From the sequence record NC_048196.1: a stretch of DNA of 64,000 bases; one strand, 5' to 3'. Under the pieces are notes generated by a model. That model did no database searches, had not been told where the DNA came from, and saw nothing but the letters and a program-made list of their open reading frames with translations. Made by a program: the position numbers and the translations under genes. This DNA is from Escherichia phage vB_EcoM_Schickermooser. This document shows, in pieces, positions 17,595-57,871 of the stretch. The stretch's first letter is position 1; each line of letters opens with the position of its first letter.

Positions 17595-17768
17595 ATGACT
17601 AAACGCACTGATTTTAAATGTATGCATTGTGGGAAATCTTTTGGGGATCATCAAGCTCGCACATTCAACTGTCCACGTAAAGGTCGCGGAAATTTTAAAG
17701 GTTTTAATCCCGCACATGTTTATTCTCCAGATTACGATAAGCCAGAAGAAGAAAAATTTGTTATTTAA
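17595..17768 (+). CDS. small zinc-finger-like protein
   Basis: ATG 17595 after AAAAGGAGA; CMHCG ... C motif. Confidence 0.45.
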   Translation: MTKRTDFKCMHCGKSFGDHQARTFNCPRKGRGNFKGFNPAHVYSPDYDKPEEEKFVI

Positions 17769-17780
17769 TAAGGAGGTCAT

Positions 17781-18062
17781 ATGGAACTCGTTCAAGAATT
17801 GTATAATGCTTTAGGAGCAAAAGGAAAAGATTGGCCCGAACATGCACTTATTGCTATAAGAGACTCCGATGGTGAGATTAAGTTTTCAAGCGTAAGTAAA
17901 GAGCACATCGTAGAAACAAAACTGGGTATTTACATGCGTGGAACTTATTGCTTATTCAACACCAGAATGGTAGAAGCCCCTGTTATCGAGGATGGAACAA
18001 AAGATTGCCCCACAATCGTAACAAAATCTGAATATGAGAAGTTTTTCTACGCTAAGGCTTGA
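17781..18062 (+). CDS. hypothetical protein
   Basis: TAAGGAGGT SD upstream. Confidence 0.55.
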   Translation: MELVQELYNALGAKGKDWPEHALIAIRDSDGEIKFSSVSKEHIVETKLGIYMRGTYCLFNTRMVEAPVIEDGTKDCPTIVTKSEYEKFFYAKA

Positions 18063-55946: not shown

Positions 55947-56021
55947 GGCCCTGTAGCTCAATGGGAGAGCTGTCGGCTCATAACCGATAGGTAGCTGGAT
56001 CGAAACCAGCCAGGGCCACCA
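55947..56021 (+). tRNA. tRNA-Met (anticodon CAT; could be Ile2/lysidine type)
   Basis: manual cloverleaf: acceptor GGCCCTG/CAGGGCC, anticodon loop CTCATAA, encoded CCA. Confidence 0.6.
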
Positions 56022-56023
56022 AA

Positions 56024-56098
56024 GTCTTTATGGTGTAATGGATAGCACAGGAGTCTTCTAAACTCTTAGTCAAGGTTCGATTCCTTGTAAAGACACCA
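56024..56098 (+). tRNA. tRNA-Arg (anticodon TCT)
   Basis: acceptor GTCTTTA/TAAAGAC, anticodon loop CTTCTAA, T-loop TTCGATT, CCA. Confidence 0.6.
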
Positions 56099-56100
56099 GA

Positions 56101-56286
56101 ACATTTTAACATGAATTAGCTCAAGTGATTTGAACCCACTACTGATCATGGTGGCAGAGAATGAGGCAAGTATGTCAGACATTATAAACAAAGGCCACGG
56201 TTATATTAGAAGACATAAATGCTCGAAGAGCACCGTTCGTGGAGAACGGGGGTTGGTGGAGTCACCATTCATGGTAAAATGTTTTA
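56101..56286 (+). ncRNA. candidate structured RNA flanked by 17-bp near-perfect inverted repeat
   Basis: AACATTTTAACATGAAT at 56101 pairs with ATTCATGGTAAAATGTT at 56270 (one mismatch). Confidence 0.3.
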
Positions 56287-56294
56287 AAAAACTA

Positions 56295-56324
56295 TTGACA
56301 ACAAGTATTATTTTATGTTAGATT
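56295..56324 (+). promoter_or_regulatory. sigma70-like promoter candidate (TTGACA-N18-TAGATT)
   Basis: TTGACA 56295-56300; immediately upstream of tRNA-Ser. Confidence 0.45.
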
Positions 56325-56332
56325 ATAAGTAT

Positions 56333-56423
56333 GGAAGGGCAAATCGACGTGGCGACGAAAACGGTCTTGAAAACCGCCGAGCTTTAAAGAGCCTTGGGAG
56401 TTCGACTCTCCCTCCTTCCGCCA
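56333..56423 (+). tRNA. tRNA-Ser (anticodon TGA), type II
   Basis: acceptor GGAAGGG/TCCTTCC, loop CTTGAAA, long variable arm, CCA. Confidence 0.55.
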
Positions 56424-56428
56424 GGTTA

Positions 56429-56514
56429 GGTAGATTGGTGAAATGGTAGCCACGACAGTTTGCTAAACTGTAGTCGGAAACGGCGTGTAGGTTCGAGTCC
56501 TACATCTACCGCCA
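56429..56514 (+). tRNA. tRNA-Ser (anticodon GCT), type II
   Basis: acceptor GGTAGAT/ATCTACC, loop TTGCTAA, long variable arm, CCA. Confidence 0.6.
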
Positions 56515-56516
56515 AG

Positions 56517-56625
56517 TTCTTTTTAATGTAGCTTACTTTAATAGAGTAAACTTTCGGCAAATGGCCCCCACCATCTTACCGATAACTCATAGTTAGTGGT
56601 GCGAACACTGGCTATTTTAAAAAGA
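56517..56625 (+). ncRNA. candidate structured element between tRNAs
   Basis: TTCTTTTTAA at 56517 versus TTAAAAAGAA at 56616 inverted repeat; internal hairpins. Confidence 0.2.
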
Positions 56626-56643
56626 ATTTAAATACTAGCATTT

Positions 56644-56731
56644 AGGTGAGTTAATTCCGTAGGGGTAGCGGGGCAGACTGTAAATCTGTTATCATTGCGA
56701 TTCGGGTGGTTCGACTCCATCACTCACCACC
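56644..56731 (+). tRNA. tRNA-Tyr (anticodon GTA), type II
   Basis: acceptor GGTGAGT/ACTCACC, loop CTGTAAA, long variable arm, CCA. Confidence 0.55.
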
Positions 56732-56737
56732 AAATTA

Positions 56738-56823
56738 AGATGAGTTGGCTGAATGGTTTAAGCGGCGGACTGTTAATCCGTGTTCGAAAGAACGATATAG
56801 GTTCAAATCCTATACTCATCGCC
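56738..56823 (+). tRNA. type II tRNA with apparent anticodon GTT (Asn anticodon on long-variable-arm body)
   Basis: acceptor GATGAGT/ACTCATC, anticodon stem GCGGA/TCCGT, loop CTGTTAA, variable hairpin GTTC-GAAA-GAAC, CCA. Confidence 0.45.
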
Positions 56824-56830
56824 AGAATTA

Positions 56831-56908
56831 TGGACTTGTAGAGTTAAGGTAAACCCCCCAGTCGCCAAGAGGCTTCTGGAATTGCAGGTATCGAATCCTG
56901 CCGAGTCC
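56831..56908 (+). tRNA. tRNA-like element, atypical (anticodon not assignable)
   Basis: 7-bp acceptor pairing GGACTTG/CGAGTCC and T-arm GCAGG/CCTGC with 8-nt loop; no canonical anticodon arm. Confidence 0.3.
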
Positions 56909-56914
56909 CAGCTT

Positions 56915-56989
56915 TGCTCCTATAGTATAATGGCTATTACAACGGTTTTGTAATCCGTGGATCTCTGTTCGATTCAGAGTGGGAGCACC
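56915..56989 (+). tRNA. tRNA-Thr (anticodon TGT)
   Basis: acceptor GCTCCTA/TGGGAGC, loop TTTGTAA, T-arm CTCTG-TTCGATT-CAGAG, CCA. Confidence 0.55.
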
Positions 56990-57263
56990 AACACAACATT
57001 AAGGGCACTGTGATTGATCGTCGTATCCTGTGCACAAGGTCTGTTCGAAAGACAGTGTTCTTAGTATTGTGTTGATCACAAAAAGAGTTACCTGAAACTT
57101 GACCGGAGTAGGGTTGGATGGGGCAAAAGAAGAAGCGGCTCTCCCATCGACAGCAACGAAGAATAATATTTGACTTTGGTTTTGTATTATTTTAAGTTAG
57201 CTTACCGAACGTAGGGCTAGTCACCCAATGGGATACTCGTCACTGTCCCACTCAATAAAACTA

Positions 57264-57293
57264 TTGACAACCAATAGTAAAATGTAGTATAGT
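57264..57293 (+). promoter_or_regulatory. sigma70-like promoter candidate (TTGACA-N18-TATAGT)
   Basis: TTGACA 57264-57269, TATAGT 57288-57293; upstream of tRNA-Gly. Confidence 0.5.
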
Positions 57294-57304
57294 AAAGATG
57301 TAGG

Positions 57305-57378
57305 GCGTTCTTGGTGTAGCGGTAGCATTCCGTCCTTCCAAGTCGGCGGCACGAGTTCGATCCTCGTAGAACGCTCCA
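57305..57378 (+). tRNA. tRNA-Gly (anticodon TCC)
   Basis: acceptor GCGTTCT/AGAACGC, loop CTTCCAA, T-arm ACGAG-TTCGATC-CTCGT, CCA. Confidence 0.55.
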
Positions 57379-57476
57379 AATTATTTAATAAAGGGTTGCC
57401 AGAAAACTTTCTCTTTTACTCATGGTTTTCTCCTTCTCTCACACCTCTTCTGGTTGCCCTTCATTAAATGATTTAT

Positions 57477-57552
57477 TGGTTTGTAGTGTAGTCAGGTAGC
57501 ACACGACACTTTGACTGTCGTAGGTTTGGTTCAAATCCAGACAGACCAGCCA
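57477..57552 (+). tRNA. tRNA-Gln (anticodon TTG)
   Basis: U1-A72 acceptor TGGTTTG/CAGACCA, anticodon stem CGACA/TGTCG, loop CTTTGAC, CCA. Confidence 0.55.
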
Positions 57553-57557
57553 TATAA

Positions 57558-57634
57558 CGGAATTTAGCTCAGTTTGGTAGAGCATACGCTTTGGGAGCGT
57601 AGGGTCGCAGGTTCGAATCCTGCAATTCCGACCA
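57558..57634 (+). tRNA. tRNA-Pro (anticodon TGG)
   Basis: acceptor CGGAATT/AATTCCG, loop TTTGGGA, T-arm GCAGG-TTCGAAT-CCTGC, CCA. Confidence 0.65.
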
Positions 57635-57640
57635 ATTTAA

Positions 57641-57714
57641 TGTTTCGTAGTTCAATGGTAGAACCCACGACTGATAATCGTGAGACACAAGTTCGATTCT
57701 TGTCGAAACAACCA
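57641..57714 (+). tRNA. tRNA-Ile (anticodon GAT)
   Basis: acceptor TGTTTCG/CGAAACA, anticodon stem CACGA/TCGTG, loop CTGATAA, CCA. Confidence 0.55.
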
Positions 57715-57717
57715 ATT

Positions 57718-57786
57718 TCCCGTTAGACTTACAGGATAAGAGTTCCACAGCTTATTGTGATGCTGGTTCGAATCCAGCACGGGATA
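57718..57786 (+). tRNA. tRNA-like element with non-canonical anticodon arm
   Basis: T-arm GCTGG-TTCGAAT-CCAGC and 6/7 acceptor pairing; best anticodon stem CACA/TGTG encloses a 6-nt loop; no CCA. Confidence 0.3.
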
Positions 57787-57792
57787 CATAAT

Positions 57793-57871
57793 AGCGGGAT
57801 AGAGGAGTCTGGTCGTCCTCGCCAGTTTCATATGCTGGAGATCATCGGTTCAAATCCGATTCCCGCCTCCA
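57793..57871 (+). tRNA. tRNA-Met (anticodon CAT), 1-72 mismatch (initiator-like?)
   Basis: acceptor AGCGGGA/TCCCGCC with A1-C72 mismatch, anticodon stem CCAGT/GCTGG, loop TTCATAT, T-loop TTCAAAT, CCA. Confidence 0.5.

Follow-up and report, generated by a model that had tools for sequence, protein, structure and literature searches.

We found that a gene of Escherichia phage vB_EcoM_Schickermooser (NC_048196.1) encodes a tRNA in which a class II shape, with a long variable arm, is combined with the anticodon GUU. The gene comprises 86 nt, including an encoded CCA, at 56739-56824 (+) of the 64,000-nucleotide stretch that was analyzed (the window). This class II architecture of a tRNA-Asn is real, under selection, and widespread in phages, and it appears to be undescribed. 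The product is probably a functional tRNA for AAC and AAU codons that receives asparagine from the host asparaginyl-tRNA synthetase (AsnRS) despite its shape. According to reviews, only Leu, Ser, bacterial Tyr, and Sec tRNAs belong to class II, in agreement with the starting point of an earlier, sequence-only reading of this DNA, namely that long arms are normally confined to a few isotypes. The phage genes form a conserved and widespread set that unites class II shape, an Asn anticodon, and Asn identity marks, outside the isotypes to which textbooks, too, confine long arms. Hundreds of public phage genomes annotate the long-armed gene as tRNA-Asn. No mention of a long-armed tRNA-Asn was found in the searchable full-text literature, including reviews on tRNA identity and on non-canonical tRNAs, the paper describing allo-tRNAs, and work on phage tRNAs and defense; the subscription papers on the T5 group from the 1980s lie outside this scope.

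ARAGORN called a tRNA-Asn (gtt) at 56739-56824 (+). The sequence-only reading had placed it at 56738-56823; the tRNA itself stood, but both boundaries move one base to the right. The Rfam tRNA model RF00005 matched with 62.0 bits (cut-off 29) and an E-value of 4.8e-11, full-length over model positions 1-71, with CUGUUAA aligned as the anticodon loop and 12 nt of the variable region (uucgaaagaacg) taken as an insertion. Folding the sequence by itself gave a minimum-energy structure with the same cloverleaf and the extra hairpin. Its z-score was only −1.7; therefore, thermodynamics alone is insufficient to make the case for a tRNA. The tRNA-Sec model RF01852 gave no listed match at 56739-56824 in an E-value scan that kept the best match per clan, and the anticodon is GUU, not UCA. 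The layout is 7/2/16+1/17/15/17/7/1/CCA. The features, together with the adjacent upstream tRNA gene, are as follows.

56645-56732 (+): tRNA-Tyr(GUA), upstream of the GUU tRNA and 6 nt away from it (Rfam, 39 bits)
56739-56745 (+): 5′ strand of the acceptor stem, GAUGAGU, pairing with 56814-56820 (G1-C72, A2-U71, U3-A70)
Between acceptor stem and D arm (+): U8 and G9, read from the sequence
56748-56763 (+): D arm, GCUGAAUGGUUUAAGC, 16 nt (Rfam alignment, covariation of the D stem)
Between D arm and anticodon arm (+): G26, read from the sequence
56765-56781 (+): anticodon arm, GCGGA-CUGUUAA-UCCGU (comparison with the E. coli K-12 asn genes)
56772-56774 (+): anticodon GUU, positions 34-36, reading AAC and AAU (ARAGORN and Rfam alignment agree)
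56782-56793 (+): extra-arm hairpin GUUC-GAAA-GAAC, 4 bp with a GNRA loop, abutting the anticodon stem (covariation)
56794-56796 (+): unpaired GAU between extra arm and T stem, a Tyr-type spacing with an invariant middle A (alignment)
56797-56813 (+): T arm, AUAGG-UUCAAAU-CCUAU (Rfam alignment, covariation)
56814-56820 (+): 3′ strand of the acceptor stem, ACUCAUC (Rfam alignment, covariation)
56821 (+): discriminator G73, invariant in 18 homologues
56822-56824 (+): encoded CCA (sequence)

The acceptor/T branch is the canonical 7/5. The D stem has 3 bp (G10-C25, C11-G24, and U12-A23), with G13 and A22 unpaired, and G18 and G19 are present. The variable region, composed of the 4-bp GAAA-capped hairpin and GAU, is 15 nt long, whereas a class I loop has 4-5 nt. 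The structural claims of the sequence-only reading are thereby borne out. A long-variable-arm tRNA with a GUU anticodon is supported alike by ARAGORN, RF00005, the fold, and covariation; the pairings that it proposed (acceptor GATGAGT/ACTCATC, the T arm, and the hairpin GTTC-GAAA-GAAC) are those read here, and each of these helices shows compensatory changes; and Rfam puts CTGTTAA in the anticodon loop, ARAGORN agrees on the anticodon, and no model sets another triplet at positions 34-36.

A BLAST search with the 86 nt matched 714 records among 50,697 phage records, and copies with 100% identity occur in many phage isolates. Homologues were also found in Epseptimavirus, Tequintavirus SHSML-45, Novosibvirus PM135, Justusliebigvirus EmilieFrey (Bas61), Moonvirus Merlin, and Klebsiella phage Roth04, and the lineages span T5-like, rV5-like, and T4-like phages. 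Within the BASEL collection, the E. coli phages Bas30 and Bas61 have the long-armed gene. The homologues in these groups are 80-86 nt long (83-86 nt in six relatives that differ from the window gene), each with GUU, G73, and a variable hairpin, and the two strands of the extra arm change together across relatives (GUUC/GAAC, AUCC/GGAU, GAAC/GUUC, GUCG/CGAC, GUCA/UGAC, and GUC/GAC). When 18 distinct homologues were aligned, 99.5% of the cells proved to be paired, and both sides change in 16 of the 24 pairs. Compensatory changes were observed in all four pairs of the extra arm (98.5% of cells paired), in six of seven acceptor pairs, and in three of five T-stem pairs. None of 500 shuffles reached the observed covariation score, and sliding the 3′ partners as a control lowered pairing to 32-47%. 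The anticodon GUU and G73 are invariant in the homologues; pairs 2-71 and 3-70 are free to drift across the GUU family. Compensatory evolution has preserved the extra arm across many phage lineages.

IMG/VR was then scanned with an exact pattern in which a long gap separates the Asn anticodon loop from the T loop; this gave at least 120 loci and at least 79 distinct long-armed GUU tRNAs. When the gap was widened to admit ordinary tRNAs, 15 of 120 loci among the matches listed were long-armed, about 1 in 8. The median number of tRNAs per locus, again among the matches listed, was 10 in the long-arm scan and 3 at ordinary loci. Long arms are found on other isotypes as well where phages cluster their tRNA genes: Cys(GCA) 9, Thr(UGU) 7, and Trp(CCA) 5 among the matches listed from viral contigs, and some Glu, His, Met, and Gly tRNAs with a hairpin-forming extra arm. 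Several of the other isotypes have the anticodon stem ACGGA/UCCGU and the GUC-GNRA-GAC arm of the Asn family. The discriminator in long-armed tRNAs of the same loci was U73 in 8 of 9 Cys and G73 in 4 of 4 Trp tRNAs among the matches listed. It thus tracks the anticodon, as expected if the arm was added to several identities, and not if these were drifted Ser tRNAs. This suggests a single scaffold that has served several identities, its discriminator changed to fit each.

Long-armed GUU tRNAs are rare in cellular genomes. In 185,579 GTDB species genomes, the pattern gave mostly chance matches and was real in about 4-5 of 120 among the matches listed, these being tRNA clusters in a Saprospiraceae MAG, Micromonospora-type actinomycete arrays, and one nanoarchaeal MAG. 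The chromosomal arrays of Verrucosispora and Micromonospora contain 34-36 tRNA genes within 8 kb, including a 90-nt long-armed tRNA-Asn with U1-A72 and G73, and a Saprospiraceae MAG cluster also has an 88-nt Lys(UUU) tRNA. Other long ARAGORN calls in GTDB were set aside, two because they look like degenerate tandem copies and one because it looks like an intron-containing archaeal gene. No prophage or other copy was found by BLAST in 5,426 complete E. coli genomes, where the only hit was a chance 34-nt match in yobD.

The gene lies in a cluster of 11 tRNA genes at 55947-57871, flanked by small leftward ORFs on one side and rightward terminase and portal genes on the other. A Pfam scan of the flanking ORFs identified terminase, portal, and phosphoesterase, and no tRNA-processing enzyme among them. 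The window belongs to a Phapecoctavirus, and its tRNA region is 97-99% identical to that of other Phapecoctavirus genomes (phAPEC8-like E. coli myoviruses, Stephanstirmvirinae), whose GenBank records label the long-armed gene tRNA-Asn. No second Asn-anticodon tRNA was found in the window's tRNA cluster or in the examined tRNA regions of relatives. The gap to the upstream tRNA-Tyr is only 6 nt; therefore, the two tRNAs probably share one precursor. The acceptor stem of this tRNA-Tyr (GGUGAGU/ACUCACC) differs from that of the GUU tRNA at pair 2-71 only, and their anticodon arms differ at three positions. In the Mt1B1_P17 record, the tRNA-Tyr and a second Met(CAU) at 57793-57871 (+) are flagged pseudo/OTHER.

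The known identity set of E. coli AsnRS consists of the GUU anticodon and G73, and it can be transferred onto the body of tRNA-Lys (PMC9976931). The phage tRNA carries both elements. Its positions 25-43 (CGGCGGACUGUUAAUCCGU) form a 19-nt stretch identical to that of E. coli K-12 asnT/U/V/W (NC_000913.3), with which it shares GUU, G73, and the loop CUGUUAA. This stretch corresponds to the anticodon arm plus C25 and G26, and every other arm is unlike that of the host. The variable loop of E. coli tRNA-Asn is 5 nt long, its first acceptor pair is U1-A72, and its D stem comprises 4 bp; the corresponding features of the phage tRNA are 15 nt, G1-C72, and 3 bp, and the two molecules show no relationship beyond the anticodon arm (score −4).

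The wider family shows further Asn-like features. Among the matches listed from viral contigs, G73 was present in 70 of 72 well-folded long-armed GUU tRNAs. U1-A72 together with G73 occurs in 44 of the 72 long-armed tRNAs (61%) and 65 of the 78 ordinary viral tRNA-Asn among the matches listed, and in none of the viral Ser (0/90), Tyr (0/54), or Leu (0/85) tRNAs. After removal of the anticodon and extra arms, the nearest neighbor was an ordinary tRNA-Asn for 28 of the 72 long-armed GUU tRNAs, against a background of 5%. The U1-A72 pair, which is typical of bacterial tRNA-Asn, is absent from the window gene (G1-C72). G1-C72 is also the first pair of tRNA-Lys. Because Asn identity can be transplanted onto tRNA-Lys, U1-A72 is not a known requirement of AsnRS.

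From these features, we infer that AsnRS would accept the long-armed tRNA through GUU and G73, and that the enzymes responsible for queuosine-34 and t6A37 would treat it as a tRNA-Asn. SerRS would largely ignore it on account of the short arm, the 3-base spacer to the T stem, and the lack of G2-C71 and A3-U70, and LeuRS and TyrRS would be kept off by G73. The tRNA would then supply Asn decoding to an AT-rich phage (the G+C content of the window is 38%, and AAU and AAC make up 5.0% of the codons in 71 window ORFs), and it may stand in for host tRNA-Asn after the cell has degraded its own. Synthetases of class II, AsnRS among them, approach their tRNA on the side of the variable loop, as in the AspRS-tRNA complex; therefore, the long arm might hinder AsnRS. 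If the amino acid named by the anticodon is accepted, AsnRS, EF-Tu, the ribosome, and the modification enzymes all tolerate a large extra arm, and such tolerance, if true, would be useful to tRNA engineering and to software for isotype prediction.

The alternative that survives best, although we consider it rather unlikely, is a tRNA that accepts Ser, or both Ser and Asn, and thereby puts Ser at AAC and AAU codons. Without the anticodon and extra arms, the body is nearest to phage tRNA-Ser, which supplies 10 of the top 20 neighbors for each half, and its score against E. coli tRNA-Asn is the negative value given above. The tRNA has the SerRS-favoring features G1-C72, C11-G24, G73, and a long arm, and shares a 3-bp D stem with tRNA-Ser. 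The neighboring tRNA-Ser(GCU) has the same layout throughout, and its arm is likewise of 4 bp. SerRS depends chiefly on the arm without reading the anticodon, and anticodon-changed Ser tRNAs mistranslate (PMC9976931). Since SerRS is blind to the anticodon, it would recognize these same features here. If Ser is taken, this would be natural phage-driven mistranslation.

However, the arm itself differs from that of tRNA-Ser, and reviews regard arm length and the number of unpaired bases as decisive among class II tRNAs, with E. coli SerRS reading tertiary shape. The window arm consists of 0 nt, a 4-bp stem, a 4-nt loop, and 3 nt, against 1, 5-7, 4-5, and 1 in E. coli Ser arms. The stem of tRNA-Ser is usually 5-8 bp long (at least 5 bp in 70 of 90 phage Ser tRNAs), and its 3′ spacer is 0-1 nt in 73 of these 90, as it is in each of the four E. 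coli Ser tRNAs compared. The long-armed Asn tRNAs are instead Tyr-like, with a stem of 2-4 bp in 68 of 72 and a spacer of at least 3 nt in 52 of 72 among the matches listed. G1-C72 and G2-C71 are conserved in bacterial tRNA-Ser (PMC9976931), and G2-C71 was found in 87 of 90 phage Ser tRNAs, whereas the window tRNA has A2-U71; it also has U3-A70 where tRNA-Ser has A3-U70. GUU is not a serine anticodon (NGA or GCU), and a Ser tRNA has no need of an anticodon arm held identical to that of host tRNA-Asn. The majority of the other long-armed GUU tRNAs among the matches listed have the Asn-type U1-A72 with G73, and Ser insertion would endanger about 5% of the phage codons.

We read the GUU tRNA as a chimera of a Ser-like body, the exact anticodon arm of host tRNA-Asn, and a shortened Tyr-type arm, from which selection appears to have removed Ser identity. 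The sequence-only reading had named the discriminator and the variable arm as identity elements to inspect: G73, an AsnRS element, is present, and the arm geometry is Tyr-type, not Ser-type. It had also suggested that the tRNA could be charged with Ser or Leu while reading AAC/AAU. The Ser option is disfavored by the 4-bp stem, the 3-nt 3′ spacer, and A2-U71 in place of G2-C71, and the Leu option by the discriminator, as described below. Its doubt over Asn identity was fair for the G1-C72 subfamily, whose body is nearest to phage tRNA-Ser, but Asn is still favored, and judged from sequence features Asn decoding is more probable than a Ser or Leu reading. With G1-C72 and a Ser-like body, this subfamily may be partially serylated; it may be charged with both amino acids and so produce a programmed Asn-to-Ser ambiguity during infection.

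The role of the extra arm may be related to host nucleases. The PARIS nuclease AriB attacks host tRNA-Asn as a secondary target; its cut at 40|41 lies beside the variable region, and the enzyme makes contact with the D loop as well (PMC12409363). The weakest step of the mechanism proposed here, and a guess, is that the non-host body and the arm would hide the tRNA from shape-reading host factors, such as defense nucleases; the shape might be disguised in this way while the anticodon-based identity is left intact. However, the AriB cleavage context, U36-A-A-U-C-C41, is the same as in the host tRNA, which counts against evasion. The T5 tRNA-Asn(GUU), which counters PARIS AriB (PMC12409363), is syntenic with the window gene, lying after Cys and before a tRNA-like RNA. 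It is a class I tRNA of 78 nt with the anticodon stem GCAUC/GUUGA, whereas the window tRNA has the host anticodon arm, another body, and the extra arm. The T5 relatives Bas30 and SHSML-45 have the long-armed form, with a host-type anticodon arm, at the same locus. The mutated anticodon stem of T5 and the long arm of its relatives may be two ways to differ from the host, which would fit evasion. As a generalization, phages may routinely rebuild short-looped tRNAs on a class II scaffold as a disguise from immune nucleases or host factors, which we regard as doubtful. On such a scaffold, Asn may be the commonest identity (about 1 in 8 of the viral GUU pattern matches listed), with Cys, Trp, Thr, Glu, and His used too; synthetases that read the anticodon and discriminator may still work, and factors that dock on the face formed by the anticodon stem and variable region may be blocked. 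If the arm protects from defense nucleases, it would represent a second evasion route beside the described anticodon-loop mutations of phage tRNAs.

Several materials of the PARIS study were considered as a bearing on the arm and rejected. The T5 tRNA-Asn is no tested homologue of the long-armed form because it is class I with a mutated anticodon stem, and the PARIS rescue and amber-suppressor notes in the T5 record likewise have no bearing on it. Bas34 (Escherichia phage SelmaRatti), whose own tRNA-Asn is insufficient against PARIS, seemed to offer a natural test of the arm, but the acceptor stem of its gene is broken and the case is uninformative. The annotated 77-nt tRNA-Asn at 17598-17680 of Bas34 is a long-armed homologue that ARAGORN does not call, and its 3′ acceptor strand is unpaired (GGGUCGU versus ACCCGCU); the broken stem may explain why plasmid-borne T5 tRNA-Asn was needed in that study. 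At the edge of the T5 tRNA region, gene T5.081 (17618-18052) encodes a 144-aa 'tRNA amidotransferase' that could bear on the handling of Asn and Gln tRNAs in T5-like phages.

A further alternative is that the RNA acts mainly as a decoy or inhibitor, its copy of the host anticodon arm on a foreign body soaking up nucleases that target tRNA-Asn, or other factors. The likeness to the host in the anticodon arm and nowhere else fits this idea, as does the status of host tRNA-Asn as a secondary AriB target, and the PARIS authors propose that some viral tRNAs may be competitive AriB inhibitors (PMC12409363). We consider it improbable: the intact, covarying acceptor stem, the encoded CCA, and the conserved G73 fit selection for aminoacylation, and this is the sole Asn-anticodon tRNA found in the window's cluster and in the examined tRNA regions of relatives. 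On similar grounds (intact cloverleaf, encoded CCA, and the only Asn-anticodon tRNA found in the window's cluster), the suggestion in the sequence-only reading of a non-translational tRNA-like RNA is not upheld.

Charging by TyrRS or LeuRS is very improbable. The arm geometry resembles that of tRNA-Tyr(GUA), with a short arm followed by three unpaired bases, and G34-U35, a similar anticodon arm, and six of the seven acceptor pairs are shared with the adjacent tRNA-Tyr. However, every sampled phage Tyr (54) and Leu (85) tRNA has A73, and G73, found here, acts as an antideterminant toward the LeuRS and TyrRS of E. coli (PMC9976931). Position 36 is U, whereas all 54 phage Tyr tRNAs have A there, and the D and T arms differ from those of tRNA-Tyr. 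An origin from the adjacent tRNA-Tyr through A36U and A73G seems less likely, since the D and T arms mismatch, despite the similar acceptor, and the body is nearer to Ser. A decaying pseudogene or chance cloverleaf, for which one could cite the modest folding z-score and the broken-stem copy in Bas34, has a negligible probability given the 62 bits on the tRNA model, the nearly complete pairing with compensatory changes across distant phages, the identical copies in many phage isolates, and the Mt1B1_P17 GenBank record, which keeps the gene as a plain tRNA-Asn while flagging its Tyr and Met neighbors as pseudo.

Class II shape has been combined with other anticodons elsewhere. The nematode nev-tRNAs, reportedly described by Hamashima et al., are eukaryotic and rare, are said to join a class II shape to a class I anticodon, and are reportedly charged with Leu. 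The identity elements of the phage tRNA, in contrast, point to the amino acid named by its anticodon. The allo-tRNAs (Mukai et al. 2017, PMC5389517, a paper that also cites the nev-tRNA work) likewise have a long V-arm with non-Ser anticodons and are found in bacteria and phages. However, their acceptor/T branch is 8/4 or 9/3 and their identity is Ser or Ala (PMC5389517), whereas the phage tRNA has a covarying 7/5 branch.

Two other sequences in the cluster resemble tRNAs. At 56333-56419 (+), ARAGORN missed another tRNA-like sequence with a long arm, in which the anticodon loop contains UGA (Ser) and the D arm is aberrant; its score of 38 bits on the tRNA-Sec model stays under the cut-off of 47. 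In one related GenBank record, the same cluster contains two annotated Ser tRNAs. Directly 3′ of the GUU tRNA, at 56832-56912 (+), lies a tRNA-like element called by neither ARAGORN nor Rfam. Its features are an acceptor-like stem of 7 bp (GGACUUG/CGAGUCC), a T-like arm whose loop spans 8 nt, and an unusual hairpin in the center; the minimum free energy is −27.7 kcal/mol with a z-score of −3.5, and the terminal stem covaries. The element aligns with the T5 'rna3, putative tRNA-like RNA', which is also located 3′ of the T5 tRNA-Asn, and an aligned counterpart occupies the same position in Bas30 and Bas61.
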